Of a stretch of 64,000 nucleotides of DNA, positions 7,150 through 54,163 are shown piece by piece. Each line of letters opens with the position of its first letter. Within the stretch, counting starts at the first letter, position 1. The position numbers were made by a program, and so were the translations under genes. The stretch is taken from assembly GCF_965641715.1 (NCBI RefSeq), contig NZ_OZ282453.1; one strand, given 5' to 3'. The notes under the pieces were generated by a model, which saw only the letters and a program-made list of their open reading frames with translations, was not told where the DNA came from and made no database searches. Source of the DNA: Escherichia coli (GTDB lineage: Bacteria > Pseudomonadota > Gammaproteobacteria > Enterobacterales > Enterobacteriaceae).

Positions 7150-7536
7150 TAGTGGAATCGCAGTTTATCAGAGACAATGAATCGCTTATTCAGCGTCATC
7201 ATCTTGTTGCGCTCCTTTCATGAGCTAAGCCACATATTGCCACTGGCGCAAGGAGCGCGCAGGGGGAGGACAATCGCCTCCTCCCCCTGCACCCCCGGGC
7301 TCTGGCGAACAAAATCGCCGCTGCGCGGTACCTTCAGCTTATCCCCTTCGGCTACCGGGTCGGGCGCGAGGAAACGTCCTTGTAAGACGCGCCCTCAGCC
7401 CACATCCATGTGGGCTGCCCCGGCCTTCGGGGAACGCTTCAGCGATTTTGACGCCACCAACACCGGAGCTGTTTGCAAATCAAGTACACAAAATATCTAG
7501 TTCCTGACCTGACAACTTATATGCCATATCTGATTT

Positions 7537-12670: not shown

Positions 12671-12705
12671 TTACGGATGGCGATACTCTGCCATCCGTAA
12701 TTTTT
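12671..12705. terminator. bidirectional intrinsic terminator between pbpG and dld
   Basis: perfect 11-bp inverted repeat TTACGGATGGC / GCCATCCGTAA followed by TTTTT. Confidence 0.8.
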
Positions 12706-24923: not shown

Positions 24924-24954
24924 TTGGCGGTCATGTTTAGAGCATGACCGCCAA
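24924..24954. terminator. bidirectional terminator between yehS and yehR
   Basis: perfect 12-bp inverted repeat TTGGCGGTCATG / CATGACCGCCAA flanked by A-run and T-rich tract. Confidence 0.7.
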
Positions 24955-43683: not shown

Positions 43684-45717
43684 TTATTTCACCTGATGAC
43701 CCGGTTTAGCACCAGCATCCGGGCTTAGCAGGAAAATATCTTTCCCGCCAGGACCGGCAGCCATCACCATGCCTTCGGAGATACCGAAGCGCATTTTACG
43801 TGGTGCCAGGTTAGCCACCATAATGGTGTGACGACCAATCAGTACCTGCGGATCCGGGTAAGCAGAACGAATGCCAGAGAAGACATTGCGTTTTTCACCG
43901 CCGAGATCCAGCGTCAGGCGCAGCAGTTTGTCAGAACCTTCAACAAACTCTGCGTTTTCAATCAGCGCCACGCGCAGGTCAACTTTAGCGAAGTCGTCAA
44001 AGGTGATGGTTTCCTGAATCGGATCATCTGCCAGCGGGCCAGTTACCGGCGCGGCAGCTGCTTTCACTTCTTCTTTAGACGCTTCCACCAGTGCTTCAAC
44101 CTGCTTCATATCTATGCGGTTATACAGCGCCTTGAACGGATTCACTTTATGGCCCAGCAGCGGTTGCTGGATACCATCCCAGGTCAGTTCCGTATTCAGG
44201 AATGCTTCTGCGCGCTCGGTCAGTTTCGGCAGTACCGGCTTCAGGTAAGTCATCAGCACGCGGAACAGGTTTATGCCCATCGAGCAAATTGCCTGCAGGT
44301 CAGCATCGCGGCCTTCCTGTTTCGCCACCACCCACGGAGCCTGTTCATCGACATAGCGGTTAGCCAGATCAGCCAGCGCCATGATTTCGCGCACTGCTTT
44401 ACCAAATTCGCGGCTTTCCCACGCTTCACCAATCACTTCAGCGGCATCAGTGAAGGTTTTGTACAACTGCGGGTCAGCCAGTTCGCTTGCCAGCACGCCG
44501 TCAAAACGCTTGTTGATAAAGCCCGCATTACGAGAGGCCAGGTTAACCACTTTGTTAACGATATCGGCATTCACGCGCTGAACGAAATCTTCCAGGTTGA
44601 GATCGATATCATCAATGCGCGAAGAGAGTTTCGCAGTGTAGTAGTAACGCAGGCTGTCGGCGTCAAAATGATTCAGCCAGGTGCTGGCCTTAATAAAGGT
44701 GCCACGAGACTTAGACATCTTCGCGCCATTCACCGTCACATAGCCGTGAACAAACAGGTTGGTCGGCTTGCGGAAGTTGCTGCCTTCCAACATGGCAGGC
44801 CAGAACAGACTGTGGAAGTAAACGATGTCTTTGCCGATGAAGTGATACAGCTCAGCGGTGGAATCTTTCTTCCAGTATTCATCGAAGTTTACAGTGTCGC
44901 CGCGCTTGTCGCACAGATTCTTGAAAGAACCCATGTAGCCAATCGGTGCGTCCAGCCAGACGTAGAAGTATTTGCCCGGCGCGTTCGGAATTTCGAAACC
45001 GAAGTACGGTGCATCTCGGGAGATATCCCACTGTTGCAGGCCGGATTCAAACCATTCCTGCATTTTGTTGGCCACCTGCTCCTGCAACGCGCCGCTGCGA
45101 GTCCATGCCTGCAACATTTCGCTGAAAGAGGGCAGATCAAAGAAGAAGTGTTCGGAATCACGCATTACCGGCGTAGCGCCAGAAACCACCGATTTTGGTT
45201 CGATCAATTCAGTCGGGCTATATGTTGCGCCGCAGACTTCACAGTTATCGCCGTATTGATCCGGCGATTTACATTTCGGGCAGGTACCTTTCACAAAACG
45301 GTCCGGCAGGAACATGCCTTTTTCCGGATCGTACAGTTGAGAGATGGTGCGGTTTTTAATAAAACCGTTCTCTTTCAGGCGGCTGTATATAAGCTCCGAC
45401 AGCTGACGGTTCTCTTCGCTGTGCGTAGAGTGGTAATTGTCGTAGCTGATGTTAAAGCCTGCGAAATCAGTCTGATGTTCCTGACTCATTTCGCCAATCA
45501 TCTGCTCCGGGGTGATACCAAGCTGCTGAGCTTTCAGCATGATTGGCGTACCGTGGGCATCGTCGGCGCAGATGAAGTTGACTTCGTGGCCGCGCATTCG
45601 CTGGTAACGGACCCAGACATCAGCCTGGATGTGCTCCAGCATATGGCCGAGGTGGATTGAGCCGTTGGCGTACGGCAGTGCGCACGTTACCAGAATTTTC
45701 TTCGCGACTTGAGTCAT
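43684..45717 (-). CDS. metG: methionyl-tRNA synthetase
   Basis: start at [26 protein letters not shown] (HIGH-type motif), KMSKS present, zinc knuckle CPKCKS..CEVCG. Confidence 0.95.
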
Positions 45718-45884
45718 AGTAGGCATTACTTCTTTGTAGTGAAAAGGGCTTAGATAGTACCAAATGGGGCATGGTTACGTAAGTCCTGTGCAAGCATCTT
45801 ATGATGCATTATTAGGTAAGTACTTAGCTGTTAACTTCAGGTAAACTAATAGCGATAAGTTATCTTTATAAATAAGGAGTCGGG

Positions 45885-46994
45885 ATGAACGAACAATCCC
45901 AGGCCAAATCACCAGAAGCCTTGCGCGCAATGGTCGCCGGGACACTGGCCAATTTTCAGCACCCAACCCTGAAGCATAACCTCACCACGCTGAAAGCGTT
46001 GCACCATGTCGCCTGGATGGACGACACGTTGCATGTGGAACTGGTTATGCCATTCGTCTGGCATAGCGCGTTTGAAGAGTTAAAAGAGCAATGTAGCGCC
46101 GAACTGCTGCGTATCACCGGGGCGAAAGCTATCGACTGGAAACTGTCGCACAATATCGCCACCTTAAAACGCGTGAAGAATCAGCCGGGTATTAATGGCG
46201 TGAAGAACATCATTGCGGTCAGTTCCGGTAAAGGCGGCGTGGGTAAATCCTCCACGGCGGTAAACCTGGCGCTGGCACTGGCGGCGGAAGGGGCGAAAGT
46301 CGGTATTCTGGACGCCGATATCTACGGCCCATCAATTCCCACCATGCTGGGCGCAGAAAATCAGCGTCCAACTTCGCCGGACGGTACCCATATGGCACCG
46401 ATTATGTCTCATGGCCTGGCAACCAATTCAATTGGTTATCTGGTCACTGACGACAATGCGATGGTGTGGCGTGGACCGATGGCGAGCAAGGCGTTAATGC
46501 AGATGTTGCAGGAAACCTTGTGGCCGGATCTCGACTATCTGGTGCTTGATATGCCGCCAGGCACCGGTGACATTCAATTGACGCTGGCGCAGAACATTCC
46601 GGTAACTGGTGCAGTCGTGGTCACCACCCCGCAGGACATCGCGTTGATCGATGCGAAAAAAGGCATTGTGATGTTCGAGAAAGTCGAGGTTCCGGTGCTC
46701 GGTATTGTCGAGAACATGAGTGTGCATATTTGTAGTAACTGTGGTCACCATGAACCGATTTTCGGTACCGGTGGTGCAGAGAAACTGGCTGAAAAATACC
46801 ATACACAGCTGCTGGGGCAGATGCCGTTACACATCTCCTTACGTGAGGATCTCGATAAAGGCACGCCAACGGTTATCAGCCGTCCGGAGAGCGAATTTAC
46901 CGCTATCTACCGCCAGCTGGCTGACCGCGTTGCAGCTCAGCTCTACTGGCAGGGTGAAGTTATTCCAGGCGAGATTTCCTTCCGCGCGGTCTAA
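45885..46994 (+). CDS. apbC: Fe-S cluster carrier ATPase ApbC/Mrp
   Basis: 369 aa; P-loop SGKGGVGKSS; CxxC motif (CSNCGH). Confidence 0.93.
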   Translation: MNEQSQAKSPEALRAMVAGTLANFQHPTLKHNLTTLKALHHVAWMDDTLHVELVMPFVWHSAFEELKEQCSAELLRITGAKAIDWKLSHNIATLKRVKNQPGINGVKNIIAVSSGKGGVGKSSTAVNLALALAAEGAKVGILDADIYGPSIPTMLGAENQRPTSPDGTHMAPIMSHGLATNSIGYLVTDDNAMVWRGPMASKALMQMLQETLWPDLDYLVLDMPPGTGDIQLTLAQNIPVTGAVVVTTPQDIALIDAKKGIVMFEKVEVPVLGIVENMSVHICSNCGHHEPIFGTGGAEKLAEKYHTQLLGQMPLHISLREDLDKGTPTVISRPESEFTAIYRQLADRVAAQLYWQGEVIPGEISFRAV

Positions 46995-47022
46995 CGCCTA
47001 TTAACCATTCTGGTTATTCTTC

Positions 47023-47066
47023 ATACACCGCAGAGATGTTACATTGATGCGGTGTATTTGTTTTTG
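47023..47066 (+). terminator. intrinsic terminator after apbC
   Basis: 10-bp inverted repeat ATACACCGCA / TGCGGTGTAT followed by TTGTTTTTG. Confidence 0.7.
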
Positions 47067-47255
47067 CCGCATTAATGAACACTTATTTAATACTGCGAAT
47101 ATTCAGTGGATCTTAGTCCGAAACTGTACAAAGGCGATTGATTGTGCAACCACTGTCTCTTTATCATCCCTCGTGGCTGTGTAGCGGATGTACAGCTATA
47201 GTGTGTTATGCACTCAATCTACCCGGCATAACCTTTACTACAGGGATAACGTTCA

Positions 47256-47537
47256 ATGAATAAGTATTGGTTGTCAGGAGCTGTTTTTCTTGCTTATGGA
47301 CTAGCATCACCCGCGTTCTCTTCTGATACTGCAACATTAACCATCAATGGCAGAATTAGTTCCCCTACATGCAGTATGGATGTTGTTAATAATCATCTTC
47401 AGCAACGTTGTGGGCAGTTGTTACAACGAGTTGAAACCAACTATCGTGCTTCTTCTACTGCAAAAGGCGTTACGACAGAAGTGGTAGCTGTGGGTAATAA
47501 CGACAAACGCAAAATCGTGTTAAATCGCTACGATTAA
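47256..47537 (+). CDS. yehE: small secreted protein YehE
   Basis: 93 aa with signal peptide, upstream of the fimbrial genes. Confidence 0.8.
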   Translation: MNKYWLSGAVFLAYGLASPAFSSDTATLTINGRISSPTCSMDVVNNHLQQRCGQLLQRVETNYRASSTAKGVTTEVVAVGNNDKRKIVLNRYD

Positions 47538-47566
47538 TTTGCCAACACCGTTTTAAGCATATTTAA

Positions 47567-47608
47567 AAAGCCAAAATCATTCCTATGAATGATTTTGGCT
47601 TTTTTATT
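47567..47608 (+). terminator. intrinsic terminator after yehE
   Basis: 15-bp inverted repeat AAGCCAAAATCATTC / GAATGATTTTGGCTT followed by TTTTTT. Confidence 0.75.
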
Positions 47609-47828
47609 CATCCCATAAATGTTATTTACGGTAATTTACGGTAATTAATCAGTTTCAAAAATGTTTGTTATAGCGAATTATTTGTTGTATTTATATCGCA
47701 TTAGTTAATTTGTTTTAAATCAACAAAACAATATGTTTACATTGCGGCAACCTTTTTGATGTGAGAAATTTGTTTCCAAGAGATACAGACTCTTAACAAA
47801 ACAAAATAAACTTATTAAGGAATGCATC

Positions 47829-48371
47829 ATGAAACATTCAATTATTGCTGTCGCTGTCTTATCTTCTGTATTTATGAGTGCTGGTATTTTCGCTGCTGAA
47901 GTAGATACCGGAACTTTAACCATTAAAGGTAATATTGCTGAATCACCATGTACATTTGTCGCTGGCGGTGATTCAGTCAGTATTAATATGCCGACTGTAC
48001 CCACCACTGTATTTGATGGAAAAGCGAAATATTCAACTTATGATGGCGCGGTTGGTGTAACCAGCAGTATGCTGAAAATTACTTGTCCGAAGACTATTGA
48101 TGGCGTAAAACTTTCGTTGATCACCAACGAGAAAATTCTTGGTAATGATAAGGCAATATCCAGTAGTAATGACACAGTTGGATACTATCTCTATTTGGGA
48201 GATAGCAGTGACGTACTGGATATTTCCGCACCATTTAATATTGAAAGTTATAAAACTGCTGATGGACAATATGCAATACCGTTTAAGGCAAAATATCTGA
48301 AGTTGACTGACAGTGGTGTTGCATCTGGTACTGTTAACTCTTCATTGGTTATGCGTGTTGCCCAGGATTAA
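47829..48371 (+). CDS. yehD: fimbrial major subunit YehD
   Basis: 180 aa with signal peptide and fimbrial subunit fold, AT-rich upstream region. Confidence 0.9.
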   Translation: MKHSIIAVAVLSSVFMSAGIFAAEVDTGTLTIKGNIAESPCTFVAGGDSVSINMPTVPTTVFDGKAKYSTYDGAVGVTSSMLKITCPKTIDGVKLSLITNEKILGNDKAISSSNDTVGYYLYLGDSSDVLDISAPFNIESYKTADGQYAIPFKAKYLKLTDSGVASGTVNSSLVMRVAQD

Positions 48372-48411
48372 ATATTTAAAATAATCATCTTGTTTTTTCA
48401 GTAAGTTAAAA

Positions 48412-48435
48412 TGGCCGCCATATTCATGGCGGCCA
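48412..48435 (+). promoter_or_regulatory. intercistronic stem-loop between pilin and chaperone genes
   Basis: perfect 10-bp inverted repeat TGGCCGCCAT-attc-ATGGCGGCCA with no T-run. Confidence 0.5.
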
Positions 48436-48458
48436 GCATAAATATAAGAGGCATTAAG

Positions 48459-49133
48459 ATGAAAGGGTTATTATCTTTACTCATCTCTTCTATGATATTC
48501 CCCGTGCATGCCGGAATGGTTATTTTCGGGACCCGTATCATTTACCCGGCAGAGCAGAAAGAGGTCATGGTACAACTGATGAATCAGGGAAACCGCTCTT
48601 CGCTGATGCAGGCGTGGATTGATGATGGCGACACGTCTCTGCCGCCAGAAAAGATTCAGGTTCCTTTCATGTTAACGCCACCAGTAGTGAAAGTAGCGGC
48701 CAATTCTGGGCAACAAATAAAAATTAAAATCATGCCTAATAAATTACCCAGTAATAAGGAAAGTATTTTTTATCTTAATGTTCTGGATATTCCACCGAAT
48801 AGCCCAGAAGATGAAGGAAAGAATGCGTTAAAATTTGCCATGCAAAACAGAATCAAGTTGTTTTACCGACCTGCTGGTATTGCTCCGGTAAATAAAACGA
48901 CTTTTAAAAAATTACGAGTGAGTCGTAGCGGTAATAACGTAGTCATAAAAAATGACTCGCCAAATTGGGTAACGATTTCTGATGTTAAGGCTAATAACGT
49001 CAAAGTGAATTATGAAACAATCATGATTGCACCACATGAAAGTCAGAATGTTAGTGTAAAAAATAATAATGCGAATAGCTGGCAACTGACCATTATCGAT
49101 GACCACGGCAACTATATTAGTGACAAAATTTAA
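48459..49133 (+). CDS. yehC: periplasmic fimbrial chaperone YehC
   Basis: start at MKGLLSLL with AAGAGG RBS; PapD-like chaperone. Confidence 0.9.
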   Translation: MKGLLSLLISSMIFPVHAGMVIFGTRIIYPAEQKEVMVQLMNQGNRSSLMQAWIDDGDTSLPPEKIQVPFMLTPPVVKVAANSGQQIKIKIMPNKLPSNKESIFYLNVLDIPPNSPEDEGKNALKFAMQNRIKLFYRPAGIAPVNKTTFKKLRVSRSGNNVVIKNDSPNWVTISDVKANNVKVNYETIMIAPHESQNVSVKNNNANSWQLTIIDDHGNYISDKI

Positions 49134-49148
49134 TTGCAGGAGCTGCCT

Positions 49149-51629
49149 ATGTTGAGAATGACCCCACTTGCATCAGCAATAGTCGCGTTATTGCTCGGCA
49201 TTGAAGCACATGCAGCAGAAGAAACCTTTGACACCCATTTTATGATGGGAGGAATGAAAGGTGAGCAAGTAACAAATTTGCGTCTTGATGATAATCAGCC
49301 TTTACCTGGGCAGTACGACATTGATATTTATGTCAATAAACAATGGCGTGGAAAATATGAGATTATCGTCAAAGATAACCCACATGAAACTTGCCTGACG
49401 CGTGAAATTGTAAAGCGGTTAGGTATAAATAGCGATAATTTTGCACGCGAAAATCAGTGTTTAACATTTGAGCAACTTGTTCAGGGCGGAAGCTACTCCT
49501 GGGATATTGGGATTTTTCGTTTGGATCTCGCTGTTCCGCAAGCCTGGGTCGAAGAGCTGGAAAATGGTTACGTTCCGCCAGTAAACTGGGAGCGGGGAAT
49601 CAATGCGTTTTATACGTCTTATTACGTAAGTCAGTATTACAGTGACTATAAAGCCTCGGGCAATAGTAAGAGCACTTATGTGCGTTTTAACAGTGGGCTA
49701 AATTTGCTGGGATGGCAGCTGCATTCAGATGCCAGTTTTAGCAAAACGGATAATAATCCTGGTGAGTGGAAAAGCAACACACTGTTTCTGGAGCATGGAT
49801 TTTCTCAAATTCTCGGTGCGCTGCGTATTGGTGATATGTACACCTCATCCGATATATTTGATTCCGTTCGCTTCACCGGGGTTCGGTTATTTCGTGATAT
49901 GCAGATGTTGCCAAACTCGAAGCAAAATTTTACCCCACGGGTACAGGGGATTGCCCAGAGTAACGCGTTGGTAACTATTGAACAGAACGGTTTTGTCGTT
50001 TATCAGAAAGAGGTTCCACCAGGTCCGTTTTCGATTAGTGATTTGCAGTTAGCGGGCGGAGGGGCGGATCTTGATGTTAGTGTTAAGGAAGCCGATGGTT
50101 CTGTGACTACGTATCTGGTGCCTTATGCGGCAGTACCTAATATGCTGCAACCAGGTGTATCAAAATATGATTTTGCGGCAGGCCGTAGTCATATTGAAGG
50201 TGCGAGCAAGCAAAGTGATTTTGTCCAGGTCGGTTATCAGTATGGTTTTAATAATTTATTGACGCTGTATGGCGGCACGATGGTTGCTAATAATTACTAT
50301 GCCTTTACCCTCGGAACAGGTTGGAACACGCGTATTGGCGCAATTTCAGTCGATGCAACTAAATCGCACAGTAAGCAAGACAATGGTGATGTGTTTGACG
50401 GACAAAGTTATCAAATTGCCTATAACAAATTTTTGAGCCAAACATCAACACGTTTTGGTCTGGCGGCCTGGCGTTATTCGTCGCGTGATTACCGCACATT
50501 TAACGATTATGTGTGGGCAAATAATAAAGATAATTATCGTCGTGATAAAAACGATGTCTATGATATTGCCGATTATTACCAGAATGATTTTGGTCGCAAA
50601 AATAGCTTTTCCGCCAATATGAGTCAGTCATTGCCAGAAGGCTGGGGATCTGTGTCATTAAGTACTTTATGGCGTGATTACTGGGGGCGAAGCGGCAGTA
50701 GTAAAGATTATCAACTGAGTTATTCCAATAACTGGCGGCGGATAAGCTATACCCTCGCGGCAAGCCAGGCGTATGACGAGAACCACGCCGAAGAGAAACG
50801 CTTTAATATTTTTATATCGATTCCCTTTGACTGGGGCGATGACGTTACGACGCCGCGGCGGCAAATATATATGTCTAACTCAACGACCTTTGATGATCAG
50901 GGTTTTGCTTCAAACAATACCGGATTATCGGGAACCGTTGGGAACCGCGATCAGTTTAACTATGGTATCAACTTGAGCCATCAACATCAGGGAAATGAAA
51001 CGACAGCTGGGGCCAATTTGACCTGGACCGCACCGGCCGCAACAGTGAATGGCAGCTATAGTCAGTCGAGTACTTATCGACAGGTCGGAGCCAGTGTTTC
51101 AGGGGGACTGGTTGCCTGGTCTGGTGGCGTTAATCTGGCGAACCGTCTTTCCGAAACGTTTGCAGTGATGCATGCGCCGGGAATCAAAGATGCTTATGTC
51201 AATGGGCAAAAATATCGCACAACAAACCGTAATGGTGTGGTGGTGTACGACGGACTGACACCTTATCGGGAAAATCACCTGATGATGGATGTGTCGCAAA
51301 GCGATAGCGAAACAGAATTACGCGGGAATCGTAAAATGACCGCCCCTTATCGCGGCGCGGTCGTTCTGGTTGATTTTGATACCGATCAGCGTAAGCCCTG
51401 GTTTATAAAAGCATTAAGATCCGATGGACAGCCATTAACGTTTGGTTATGAAGTCAATGATATGCATGGTCATAACATTGGTGTTGTCGGCCAGGGCAGT
51501 CAGATATTTATTCGCACCAATGAAATACCGCCAGCGGTTAATGTGGCAATTGATAAGCAACAAGGGCTTTCATGCACAATCACCTTCGGTAAAGAGATTG
51601 ATGAAAGTAAAAATTATATCTGTCGGTGA
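49149..51629 (+). CDS. yehB: outer-membrane fimbrial usher YehB
   Basis: 826 aa from MLRMTPLAS; usher family. Confidence 0.9.
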   Translation: MLRMTPLASAIVALLLGIEAHAAEETFDTHFMMGGMKGEQVTNLRLDDNQPLPGQYDIDIYVNKQWRGKYEIIVKDNPHETCLTREIVKRLGINSDNFARENQCLTFEQLVQGGSYSWDIGIFRLDLAVPQAWVEELENGYVPPVNWERGINAFYTSYYVSQYYSDYKASGNSKSTYVRFNSGLNLLGWQLHSDASFSKTDNNPGEWKSNTLFLEHGFSQILGALRIGDMYTSSDIFDSVRFTGVRLFRDMQMLPNSKQNFTPRVQGIAQSNALVTIEQNGFVVYQKEVPPGPFSISDLQLAGGGADLDVSVKEADGSVTTYLVPYAAVPNMLQPGVSKYDFAAGRSHIEGASKQSDFVQVGYQYGFNNLLTLYGGTMVANNYYAFTLGTGWNTRIGAISVDATKSHSKQDNGDVFDGQSYQIAYNKFLSQTSTRFGLAAWRYSSRDYRTFNDYVWANNKDNYRRDKNDVYDIADYYQNDFGRKNSFSANMSQSLPEGWGSVSLSTLWRDYWGRSGSSKDYQLSYSNNWRRISYTLAASQAYDENHAEEKRFNIFISIPFDWGDDVTTPRRQIYMSNSTTFDDQGFASNNTGLSGTVGNRDQFNYGINLSHQHQGNETTAGANLTWTAPAATVNGSYSQSSTYRQVGASVSGGLVAWSGGVNLANRLSETFAVMHAPGIKDAYVNGQKYRTTNRNGVVVYDGLTPYRENHLMMDVSQSDSETELRGNRKMTAPYRGAVVLVDFDTDQRKPWFIKALRSDGQPLTFGYEVNDMHGHNIGVVGQGSQIFIRTNEIPPAVNVAIDKQQGLSCTITFGKEIDESKNYICR

Positions 51630-51639
51630 GAGGTGAAAT

Positions 51640-52674
51640 ATGATGTTCAGAAATGCAATATTACTAATATTTATATTGTGGGCTAATTTTACCTGGGCTG
51701 GATGTCGTACTACTGCATCATTAAATATTACTGATAGTATTAATGTTGGGGGGATTTTAGCGAATGAAACTTCCTTTAGTAAAAGTGTCGTGTTTACTGG
51801 GATATCTTGTGATACGAGCACGGATAAAATAGTTTATAAAAATATCCAAAGTGATTGGGTTGAAGTTGGGCCTTTTGGTAATGGCGAAAAATTAAAGGTT
51901 AAAATAGAGTCTTTAGGTAAAACCAGCGACACGATTGGGAAATCCAGCAATGCGCAGGCAGTATTACCCTATGTGGTTAAAATAGCCAGAGGTACACCTG
52001 ATTTTACTGGAGAAAGAAAATCTACCTGGTTTATTTCAGATACCGTGATTGCAAATATTGGCGGTGAGTCATCGTCATCCATCGACTTTTGGTTGGGTAT
52101 TTGTAAGGCATTGAAGTTTAACTGGTGTGTGAATTATCTCACCAGCAAACTGGCGGGGGATACTTTTACGCTTGGGTTAAGTATTTCCTATTATCCTAAA
52201 AATACGACCTGTAAGCCTGAAAACACAGTTATAAAAGTAGATGATATCGCCTTGTCCCAGCTCAGAAATCAGGGAAAGATTGCGGCGAACAGTAAGGAAG
52301 GAACAATTACGTTGAAATGTGATAATCTTTTCGGCGACAAAAAACAAGCATCGCGGAATATGGTTGTATATCTTTCTAGCAGTGACTTAGTTAAAGGAAG
52401 TAATACTATTTTGCGTGGTAAAACAGATAATGGTGTAGGGTTTGTGTTGGATCTAACAGAACCACCAAAAGGGACTGAGGCTGCCATTAAAATTTCGGCC
52501 AACGGCGATCAGGGCGCGGCGACATCATTATGGAAAACAGATAAACCAGGAGTTTCATTAAATAGCAACATTATTAATATACCTGTCATGGCCAGTTACT
52601 ATGTATATGATGAAAAAAAAGTTAAATCTGGCGTACTGGAGGCAACCGCATTAATCAACGTGAAATACGACTAA
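51640..52674 (+). CDS. yehA: fimbrial adhesin-like protein YehA
   Basis: 344 aa with signal peptide, last gene of the chaperone-usher operon. Confidence 0.88.
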   Translation: MMFRNAILLIFILWANFTWAGCRTTASLNITDSINVGGILANETSFSKSVVFTGISCDTSTDKIVYKNIQSDWVEVGPFGNGEKLKVKIESLGKTSDTIGKSSNAQAVLPYVVKIARGTPDFTGERKSTWFISDTVIANIGGESSSSIDFWLGICKALKFNWCVNYLTSKLAGDTFTLGLSISYYPKNTTCKPENTVIKVDDIALSQLRNQGKIAANSKEGTITLKCDNLFGDKKQASRNMVVYLSSSDLVKGSNTILRGKTDNGVGFVLDLTEPPKGTEAAIKISANGDQGAATSLWKTDKPGVSLNSNIINIPVMASYYVYDEKKVKSGVLEATALINVKYD

Positions 52675-52730
52675 TAACAAGCAAGACGAGCAAGTGGCTA
52701 ATAATAAGAAATAATAAGGTGTCTGCATTT

Positions 52731-52757
52731 CCCCCTCTCTCCGAGGGGGCTTTTTTT
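52731..52757 (+). terminator. intrinsic terminator after yehA
   Basis: CCCCCTC-tctcc-GAGGGGG hairpin followed by TTTTTTT. Confidence 0.8.
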
Positions 52758-53094
52758 AGCGATGATAAAAAATCTCACCGTCGTAGGCTTTAATGATTTT
52801 TCCGTCGGTATTATTGATCAGCACATATGCACCGCCCATATAGGTCCAGTGGGTTCCGGCGTCAGGTGCGGGCAGGTTACGCAACTGCCACTGCTTAATG
52901 TTGTACTCATCGGTACGGTACATCTCTGGTACGGTGTCACCTGGTTTGAAATGCTTGAAGTCAGCAATGAAGCTGCTTAACTCATACTTTGAAATTCCCG
53001 AGGCATTGGTCGAACCCGCGGTGGCTGGTGCGGCCCATGCTGCGCTGGTTACCAGCAAAAGCGCACCCAGCAACATCTTATTTTTTATGGTCAT
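52756..53094 (-). CDS. rcnB: periplasmic nickel/cobalt homeostasis protein RcnB
   Basis: start at MTIKNKMLLGALLL with GGAGAG RBS; 112 aa with signal peptide. Confidence 0.9.
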   Translation of the reverse strand: MTIKNKMLLGALLLVTSAAWAAPATAGSTNASGISKYELSSFIADFKHFKPGDTVPEMYRTDEYNIKQWQLRNLPAPDAGTHWTYMGGAYVLINNTDGKIIKAYDGEIFYHR

Positions 53095-53311: not shown

Positions 53312-54163
53312 TTATCTCATAATACCCATAAAGCCATGCACTCCCATATACAACCCGACTAAACCAATCAACAGACTGGAAAAATAGGGGGCGCGTTTAG
53401 CGAGAGTGTTAAATCCGCTCCAGCGTTTTGCAACTTGTTGAACACTGATTGCCGCTCCAACGCCTACTGTAACCAGCGTTAATGCCAGGCCGATGCTGAA
53501 ACTGACGACCAGTGTTGCGCCCAGTGTCAGGGCTTTCAACTGAATGCAAATCAACAGCACGGTAATTGCTGCCGGGCAGGGAATAAGGCCACCTGTTAAG
53601 CCAAATAACAAAATTTGCCAGTTGGTGACCTCTCTACCATCAAAGCGTCGTTTAATGTCATTGGCATGGGCTCGTGCATGGGCATCCTGATACTCTTCGT
53701 TGTCGCCATGTTCATGATGGTGATGATGTTCGTGGTCGTGGTCGTGGTCGTGGTCTTGATGATCTTCGTGATCGTGGTGATGATGCTCATGATCATGCTC
53801 GTGCATATTCTCCAGCCAGTTGCGTTCGCCGCGCCAGGTACGCCAGAACATCCAGAACGCGGTGCCAATAATGATCACTGCGGAAATCAACTGGAGCCAC
53901 GGTTCTGCTGATTGAGCAGTAAAGCGCTTGCTGATCACCATCCCGCCAAAGGCAATCAACCAGACCACCGCGGTATGCGAAATGGTTGCTGCCAGTCCGA
54001 GCATCACCGCCTGTTTAGTGGTGCCTTTGATGGCGATGATAAACGCCGCCATCATCGTTTTTGAGTGCCCTGGTTCCAGGCCATGAAGCGCACCAAGTAA
54101 GATGGCGCTGGGGATGAAGAACCAGGCGTTTCCTTGCTGAAGAAGAGTTGTAAATTCGGTCAT
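53312..54163 (-). CDS. rcnA: nickel/cobalt efflux permease RcnA with His-rich loop
   Basis: 283 aa; cytoplasmic loop HEHDHEHHHHDHEDHQDHDHDHDHEHHHHHEH. Confidence 0.93.
   Translation of the reverse strand: MTEFTTLLQQGNAWFFIPSAILLGALHGLEPGHSKTMMAAFIIAIKGTTKQAVMLGLAATISHTAVVWLIAFGGMVISKRFTAQSAEPWLQLISAVIIIGTAFWMFWRTWRGERNWLENMHEHDHEHHHHDHEDHQDHDHDHDHEHHHHHEHGDNEEYQDAHARAHANDIKRRFDGREVTNWQILLFGLTGGLIPCPAAITVLLICIQLKALTLGATLVVSFSIGLALTLVTVGVGAAISVQQVAKRWSGFNTLAKRAPYFSSLLIGLVGLYMGVHGFMGIMR
53732..53755. repeat. hexanucleotide tandem repeat (GTGGTC)x4 inside the rcnA His-rich loop
   Basis: direct reading; encodes alternating His-Asp on the minus strand. Confidence 0.8.

Follow-up and report, generated by a model that had tools for sequence, protein, structure and literature searches.

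Conserved non-coding elements in the Yeh fimbrial locus of an O157:H7-type Escherichia coli allele

The stretch of DNA analysed here (hereafter the window) comprises 64,000 nucleotides (nt) of Escherichia coli contig NZ_OZ282453.1 and harbours, at positions 47256-52674 of the plus strand, the genes of a chaperone-usher fimbrial system. An earlier reading of the letters, referred to below as the original prediction, had described this interval as a yehEDCBA operon with an AT-rich upstream region, a short direct repeat and a stem-loop between the pilin and chaperone genes. The locus thus raises the question of which of these non-coding elements bear on its expression, and in how many units it is transcribed. 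It is very probable that the interval, taken as a whole, is best explained as the O157:H7-type allele of Yeh, a core-genome fimbrial locus of E. coli.

Gene content and chromosomal position

Five intact open reading frames (ORFs), all on the plus strand, were found in the interval:

47256-47537, plus strand: yehE, secreted protein of 93 amino acids (Pfam DUF2574, E 1.9e-42)
47829-48371, plus strand: yehD, major pilin of 180 amino acids with a signal peptide (Pfam Fimbrial PF00419, E 7.7e-7, residues 32-177)
48459-49133, plus strand: yehC, PapD-like periplasmic chaperone of 224 amino acids (PapD_N, E 8.6e-41; PapD_C, E 1.2e-9)
49149-51629, plus strand: yehB, outer-membrane usher of 826 amino acids (PapC_N; Usher, E 5e-192; PapC_C)
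51640-52674, plus strand: yehA, tip adhesin of the 'YhlD' type with two domains (receptor-binding domain, residues 21-191; pilin domain, Pfam Fimbrial PF00419, residues 186-344)

A pilin, a two-domain chaperone, a three-domain usher and a two-domain adhesin are all present, and the chaperone-usher set is complete. The assignment to yeh made in the original prediction is borne out both by this Pfam architecture and by synteny with K-12. The locus is bordered by metG and apbC/mrp on one side and by rcnB, rcnA, rcnR, thiM and thiD on the other, which is the position of yeh in K-12, where yehDCBA and yehE (b2108-b2112) occupy the same site between mrp/apbC and rcnB with the same gene order and protein lengths. 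The terminator of yehE, the conserved promoter block and the intercistronic hairpin discussed below likewise lie in K-12 at positions matching those of the window. The best NCBIfam match of the window pilin is YehD (106 bits), which falls under the family cutoff because the allele has diverged; the protein shares 85.6% amino acid identity with the K-12 pilin. Its gene is preceded by a Shine-Dalgarno sequence, AAGGA, at 47817-47821.

According to the literature, Yeh and the Stc fimbriae of Salmonella are encoded at the same locus and belong to the gamma-4 usher clade, in which the window usher, 92% identical to K-12 YehB, would also be placed. The usher proteins of Salmonella Stc (stcABCD) and of the Citrobacter orthologues exhibit 82% amino acid identity to that of the window, and these loci too possess a yehE-like gene upstream, with its terminator, as well as the conserved promoter block and a hairpin that follows the pilin gene. 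Their pilins, however, are only ~33% identical to the window pilin, their adhesins show no detectable similarity, and their hairpin sequences are not alignable with those of Escherichia.

Allele type and the adhesin

The DNA of the locus is ~81% identical to that of K-12 overall. Identity amounts to 97-99% in the flanks and 70-93% between ~47100 and ~52590, and drops to ~50% in the receptor-binding domain of yehA. The O157:H7-type allele was found in ~370 of 5426 complete E. coli genomes, mostly O157:H7, the remainder carrying the K-12 type (~81% identity). In the Yeh cluster of O157:H7 Sakai (ECs2914-2918), the genes from yehE to yehB share 99.4-99.7% DNA identity with those of the window, and the same hairpin and repeat are present. 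The yehA gene of the window shows 98.3% DNA identity to the O157 gene, with six amino acid changes (three within the receptor-binding domain), and no yehA match of at least 99% was detected among the complete genomes of the collection.

Residues 21-191 of the window YehA match PDB entry 8V9V at 168 of 171 positions and do not match entry 9N4G, whereas K-12 YehA is identical to 9N4G across the aligned receptor-binding domain. The two structures are reported to be 14% identical to each other in this domain, and 8V9V represents the receptor-binding domain of 'Sakai YhlD' (Tamadonfar et al. 2026, PMC12778044). The sequence of 8V9V is contained, at 100%, in the adhesin encoded at the yeh locus of an O157-type genome. 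In the genomes examined, 'Yhl' therefore behaves as an allele of the adhesin at the yeh locus and not as a pilus locus of its own. Other members of the genus recombine these modules: E. whittamii joins an adhesin of the K-12 type to yehEDCB resembling that of the window, and the reverse mosaic is seen in Escherichia sp. MOD1.

The hairpin between the pilin and chaperone genes

48412-48435, plus strand: yehD-yehC intercistronic hairpin, TGGCCGCCAT-ATTC-ATGGCGGCCA, perfect stem of 10 base pairs (bp) with a 4-nt loop

The perfect 10-bp hairpin without a T-run that had been noticed between the pilin and chaperone genes is indeed present at these coordinates. Seven of its ten pairs are GC, its folding energy is -18.6 to -19.4 kcal/mol (z -5.1 to -6.8), and it ends 23 nt before the start codon of yehC, its 3' tail, GCATAAAT, containing two T in 8 nt. 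A terminator scan flagged it on the minus strand only. At five places the window contains a perfect hairpin of 10 bp or more, with 0.27 expected from dinucleotide shuffles, and two of them belong to the yeh locus; the others are found at 7261-7288, 12672-12699 (followed by ATTTTTAC) and 24926-24952. A repetitive extragenic palindromic (REP)-like or mobile repeat was considered for the element and rejected, each arm of the hairpin occurring once in the window. An Rfam scan of 46900-52900, with E values up to 1, returned a chance snoRNA match only.

A GC-rich hairpin was found between the pilin and chaperone genes in all 33 related loci, with energies from -12.5 to -21.3 kcal/mol and z-scores from -2.7 to -7.1, its sequences not being alignable across genera. 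In the seven Escherichia alleles that can be aligned, 97% of the stem is paired, and double changes from G-C to A-U occur at two pairs, in E. whittamii and E. albertii and in MOD1; the covariation score was reached by 3 of 500 shuffles. As regards the 8 nt following the stem, at least five T were counted in 16 loci, including K-12 (TTTTAATTT), and three or fewer in 13 loci, including the window. Since the compensatory changes fall in alleles that lack a U-tract, the stem seems to be selected independently of canonical termination.

It is an established view that stem-loops located 3' of a subunit gene allow the subunit to be made in excess of the biogenesis proteins (PMC3373541), and in the CS6 system of enterotoxigenic E. 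coli, mutation of the stem-loop between the subunit and chaperone genes (cssB-cssC) changes expression (PMC8923064). A search for such precedents in one review of type 1 and P pilus regulation yielded nothing. The yeh locus resembles CS6 and fimbrial operons in general in having a GC-rich stem-loop between its subunit and chaperone genes; it differs in that the window version is devoid of the U-tract of a rho-independent terminator, and in that the yeh element is known from its sequence only. The role assigned to the hairpin by the original prediction, that of setting the expression ratio of pilin to chaperone, is the textbook reading and is supported by the conservation and the compensatory changes. 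Accepted as such, the hairpin would raise the level of pilin mRNA relative to the mRNA of the chaperone, usher and adhesin. In alleles of the K-12 type, which possess a U-tract, the ratio would be set by partial termination, while in the window allele, which does not, the hairpin would chiefly block exonucleases from the 3' end and provide a pause site after processing. We infer that in the window it provides 3'-end protection or pausing more than efficient termination.

Some observations must be set against this reading. In the window the coding strand carries no U-tract, so that the element does not qualify as a canonical intrinsic terminator, and the alignable covariation comes from seven alleles and two pairs. 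In addition, the hairpin keeps its distance from the chaperone gene, since in 31 of 33 loci its 3' end and the chaperone start are 19-29 nt apart, while 2-44 nt separate it from the pilin stop. This last observation could point to a role on behalf of the downstream cistrons, in which the hairpin would serve, after processing, as a 5' stabiliser or as a structure needed for efficient yehC translation. The CS6 data are in line with such a role as well, given that deletion or mutation of that stem-loop raises the transcript and nearly abolishes the protein (PMC8923064). However, short spacers constrain both distances anyway, a U-rich tail of the terminator type is found in roughly half of the loci, and the general literature ties such stem-loops to over-expression of the subunit (PMC3373541). 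A function for the downstream cistrons is therefore regarded as a minor possibility, albeit the strongest of the alternatives considered in this work.

Transcription units of the locus

47538-47828, no strand assigned: spacer between yehE and yehD, with 27% GC the most AT-rich part of the window
47565-47610, plus strand: intrinsic terminator of yehE, perfect 18-bp stem (47565-47582 and 47587-47604) with a 4-nt loop, followed by TTTTTT

The hairpin downstream of yehE folds with -22.4 kcal/mol (z -6.2). A scan of species-representative genomes provided 20 orthologous loci of Escherichia, Salmonella, Citrobacter and Superficieibacter for its alignment. Within the 13-bp core of the stem, 95.4% of the cells of this alignment are paired and 43 cells, distributed over 6 of the 13 pairs, are compensatory; one pair alone takes the forms GC, CG, UA, AU and UG. 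None of 500 shuffles scored as high in covariation, and slid controls gave 35-48%. Judged by this sequence comparison, the 3' hairpin of yehE is a functional intrinsic terminator, and yehE is therefore most likely monocistronic. The strong covarying terminator is accompanied by a yehE-yehD spacing of ~290 bp with a conserved promoter region of its own, and the locus probably comprises two transcription units, namely yehE alone and yehDCBA expressed from its own promoter. In this arrangement the yehE transcript would end at its conserved terminator, and the yehDCBA unit would encode the pilin, chaperone, usher and adhesin. Hence, the 'yehEDCBA operon' of the original prediction holds with respect to gene order, but probably not as a single unit.

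Two published observations stand in the way of this conclusion: one paper does write of a 'yehEDCBA operon' (PMC12266141), and the O157 Sakai cluster, cloned from the ATG of yehE and placed under Ptet, yielded fimbriae (PMC7098969), which makes some read-through of the yehE terminator possible. Together with the common strand of the five genes and the synteny of yehE and the pilin gene, which is kept across genera, they could be taken to indicate a single five-gene operon, transcribed from a promoter upstream of yehE, with the hairpin after yehE working as a weak attenuator. A perfect 18-bp stem with six T residues, under clear purifying and compensatory selection, is hard to reconcile with an attenuator of this kind, and yehE is separated from yehD by a conserved regulatory block with predicted FNR and ArcA sites. 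Moreover, in one locus from a metagenome-assembled genome (UBA5654) yehE is inverted relative to the pilin gene, and K-12 studies other than PMC12266141 define the unit as yehDCBA, several transcriptome papers among them (e.g. PMC5797941; Park et al. 2013). A single operon thus seems unlikely.

The promoter region of yehD

47680-47800, plus strand: conserved promoter/operator block upstream of yehD, most invariant at 47715-47723, 47725-47730 and 47735-47746
47710-47723, no strand assigned: FNR-type box TTGTTTTAAATCAA, core TTG-N7-TCAA invariant in 23 of 23 loci
47711-47753, minus strand: counterpart of the K-12 site for phosphorylated ArcA (ArcA~P), direct repeats with 11-bp spacing

An alignment of 23 loci showed that the proximal 140 bp of the yehE-yehD spacer are nearly invariant from Escherichia to Salmonella, Citrobacter and Superficieibacter, in loci whose pilins are only ~33% identical, while the distal half is poorly conserved. 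The invariant sequences of the block include GTTTACATTGCG and TTG-N7-TCAA. The former persists upstream of paralogous 'yeh-like' loci in two other Escherichia species, which lack the FNR-type core.

The consensus of FNR-binding sites is TTGAT-N4-ATCAA, and TTGTTTTAAATCAA agrees with it at 9 of 10 positions. The box is located 117-123 nt before the ATG of the pilin gene, also in distant loci that have no yehE. In K-12, FNR was found at the yehD promoter in vivo by chromatin immunoprecipitation with quantitative PCR (PMC2690998). As to ArcA, Table S4 of Park et al. 2013 lists an ArcA~P site at K-12 yehD, with binding in one replicate, and this site corresponds to the reverse complement of 47711-47753 of the window with 3 differences in 43 positions. 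In the same study, yehDCBA was derepressed 5.4-fold in an anaerobic arcA mutant of K-12.

The upstream region of yehD had also been listed as a structural-entropy riboswitch candidate. No consensus RNA structure was obtained for the block (RNAalifold, -1.97 kcal/mol), and hardly any covariation was seen in its two small inverted repeats, TGTTTTA-N6-TAAAACA and AAGAG-N7-CTCTT. On these grounds a riboswitch or other conserved leader RNA was rejected, and the constraint must therefore act on the DNA sequence.

The original prediction had pointed to ~200 bp of strongly AT-rich DNA before yehD, of the kind bound by H-NS. The segment 47610-47828 contains 26.5% GC, compared with 50.9% for the window, and is the lowest in GC of the 64 kb: only 0.17% of all 219-bp segments are as low, all of them here. 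In K-12, yeh is a member of the H-NS regulon and is activated 3.6-fold by SlyA (PMC5797941), the yehE-yehD spacer has been classed as an H-NS-bound 'promoter island' (PMC3661553), and the spacer lies within a static extended protein-occupancy domain (EPOD), loss of occupancy not being sufficient for expression (PMC12266141). Silencing by H-NS has thus been published for the K-12 allele, including the H-NS dependence that had been proposed as a check, and by analogy we infer silencing of the window allele by H-NS and other nucleoid proteins. AT-richness and H-NS are not the whole story, however, in view of the conserved ArcA/FNR block. The description of the operon as cryptic in the laboratory is only partly apt: it fits K-12, while for O157:H7 promoter fusions were reported to be active in LB and more so at 28 C, as cited from Low et al. 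2006 in PMC7098969. Electron microscopy upon forced expression, another of the proposed checks, is likewise available for O157 Sakai: the cluster expressed from Ptet produced thin, flexible fimbriae by transmission electron microscopy and raised adhesion to HeLa cells (PMC7098969).

The regulation of yeh is most likely to be understood as silencing by nucleoid proteins layered over a conserved FNR/ArcA-controlled promoter, an arrangement that the conservation of the sites suggests would extend to the window allele. The block would be a specific operator, with an FNR-type box and ArcA~P direct repeats, conserved across genera, and the K-12 binding and expression data, together with this conservation, suggest that regulators of redox state and anaerobiosis may gate yehD expression on top of silencing. 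This would explain why relief of H-NS silencing alone is not enough to switch yeh on. Against this must be counted that the data on regulators all come from the K-12 allele and none from that of the window, that Park et al. 2013 give yehD as 'no TSS' (transcription start site), and that a sigma-70 scan of the conserved block revealed no candidate with at least 9 of 12 matches and no convincing promoter. Candidates picked manually (TTGTTT-16-TATGTT, TACATT and TAACNT) are weak, and no transcription start site is claimed.

The 10-bp tandem repeat

47624-47646, no strand assigned: tandem duplication of the 10-bp unit ATTTACGGTA, 2.3 copies, reading GTAAA-N5-GTAAA on the minus strand

The direct repeat mentioned in the original prediction is real and exact, except that it had been placed one base too far to the right (47625-47644). 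The two copies of ATTTACGGTA occupy 47624-47643, and the periodicity extends over a further three bases. The 64 kb contain no other exact tandem duplication of 10 nt, with 0.1 expected from dinucleotide shuffles. Nevertheless, it is not a regular element of the promoter region, being lineage-specific, variable in copy number and not conserved. Two perfect copies are confined to the allele of the window type. A single copy is present in E. whittamii, and the copies are degenerate in E. albertii, which reads ATTTACAACA-ATTTACGGTA in this region, and in K-12, which reads ATTTACATAA-ATCTACATTA. Even near-clonal genomes of the O157 type differ, with one copy in ATCC 43889, two in ~350 genomes and three in at least seven (HB6, TB21-1, UTME-1, RIMD 0509939, 33F4, 32F4 and 33E). 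The repeat is situated ~185-205 bp upstream of the yehD ATG, outside the conserved promoter block, in the poorly conserved distal half of the spacer, and it represents a recent, slippage-prone duplication in unconstrained DNA, most likely a neutral one.

The picture of a phase-variable contingency locus fits in part only: copy number is polymorphic among close relatives, but the repeat lies at the above distance from the ATG and outside the block. The array consists of just two or three 10-bp units, and an added unit keeps the helical phase.

Could the repeat instead be a functional array of binding sites, CpxR-like or ArcA-like, whose copy number tunes yeh expression? The CpxR motif is GTAAA-N5-6-GTAAA (PMC9600279), and an exact instance occurs on the minus strand at 47625-47639, the sole match in the 64 kb as against 0.14 expected. 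In addition, the repeat resembles direct repeats of the ArcA type, TTTAC-N5-TTTAC with a different spacer is present in E. albertii, and the variation from one to three copies among near-clonal O157 genomes would suit such tuning. On the other hand, any 10-bp duplication holding one TTTAC makes a CpxR motif automatically. Perfect matches are limited to the window-type allele and E. albertii, the half-sites being degenerate in most alleles and reduced to a single copy in E. whittamii; the ~100 bp around the repeat are the least conserved part of the spacer; and the position of the repeat relative to the block speaks against such a function as well. No link between yeh and Cpx was found in the titles and abstracts of papers containing yehD and Cpx, and a systematic study of the CpxR regulon does not mention yeh (PMC9600279). 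A regulatory function of the repeat seems rather doubtful.

The start codon of yehC

In a mechanical ORF call the chaperone gene begins at 48411, inside the intercistronic hairpin, and the K-12 annotation likewise gives a 239-residue YehC starting from an ATG within the left arm of the hairpin. However, a Shine-Dalgarno sequence, AAGAGG, is present at 48446-48451, 7 nt before the ATG at 48459, which is followed by a typical signal peptide, and the Prokaryotic Genome Annotation Pipeline (PGAP) start in a 99.6%-identical genome is the equivalent of 48459 (MKG start, 224 amino acids). The yehD-yehC spacers are 79-91 nt long, with length differences not divisible by 3, and Salmonella and Citrobacter have no upstream ATG. 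The true start of yehC is almost certainly 48459, and the pattern of spacer lengths, the AAGAGG sequence and the PGAP start speak for a non-coding hairpin. That the hairpin is incidental, being a neutral palindrome or a part of the yehC coding sequence as the two longer ORFs would have it, can hardly be upheld in the face of this evidence and of a stem that is present in 33 of 33 loci with compensatory changes.

The YehE protein

The yehE gene precedes the pilin gene on the same strand, at ~280 nt, in Escherichia, Salmonella, Citrobacter and Superficieibacter, and in most of the related loci examined. Residues 1-42 of YehE match the N-terminus of pilins of the YehD family with an hhalign probability of 97% (E 1e-10). 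The pilin-like part consists of the signal peptide and the donor/A-strand TLTI.G.V..C, up to the first Cys (SDTATLTINGRV..PTC). The C-terminal IVLNRYD is similar to LINVKYD in the adhesin. The central part of the pilin fold is missing.

Beyond residue 42 no relative of YehE was detected. A profile search of the PDB gave the N-terminus of FimG as the best, insignificant, match, and an AlphaFold2 model built from a 21-sequence alignment was too poor for a fold search (predicted local distance difference test, pLDDT, 64; predicted template modelling score, pTM, 0.28). A literature search for yehE and DUF2574 produced nothing relevant. It might be speculated, with little confidence, that YehE is a conserved, separately transcribed 'mini-pilin', which acts in the periplasm on the assembly of Yeh/Stc fibres or signals the status of the envelope. 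Candidate actions on assembly would be the capping or termination of the fibre and competition for the chaperone.

Features adjoining the locus

52731-52759, plus strand: terminator-like hairpin after yehA, CCCCCTC-TCTCC-GAGGGGG followed by CTTTTTTT

The stem and T-run of this hairpin are identical in K-12, whereas its loop is TCTCC in the window and CATGAT in K-12. Its fold z-score is unremarkable (-0.8), and there is overlap between the T-run and the stop codon of rcnB, which is convergent. Further differences from K-12 were noted outside the fimbrial genes: the His-rich loop of rcnA (window ~53600-53900) differs by insertions or deletions of 9-27 nt. The metG-apbC spacer (~45700-45900) shows a 37-nt insertion or deletion.

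Relation to published work and significance

The Yeh locus, its silencing, its fimbriae and the structure of its adhesin have all been published, and the finding is already known in kind and largely in detail. The AT-rich region, the 10-bp repeat and the hairpin are real and are ordinary for operons of this sort. No published source was found for the covarying terminator of yehE, for the conservation of the FNR/ArcA block across genera, for the distribution of the U-tract over the allele classes, for the polymorphism of one to three repeat copies, for the allelic status of 'Yhl' or for the pilin-like N-terminus of YehE.

Three modest points are gained from the comparison of loci, concerning the promoter module, the selection of the stem independently of the U-tract, and 'Yhl' as an allele. 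The last of these bears on how prevalence surveys are to be read. The stem is kept where the U-tract has been lost, and the allele classes may differ in how the stoichiometry of pilin to assembly machinery is set. Finally, an ancient promoter module shared by Yeh and Stc, with FNR and ArcA sites, suggests that a pilus of gut colonisation may be under the control of oxygen or redox state.

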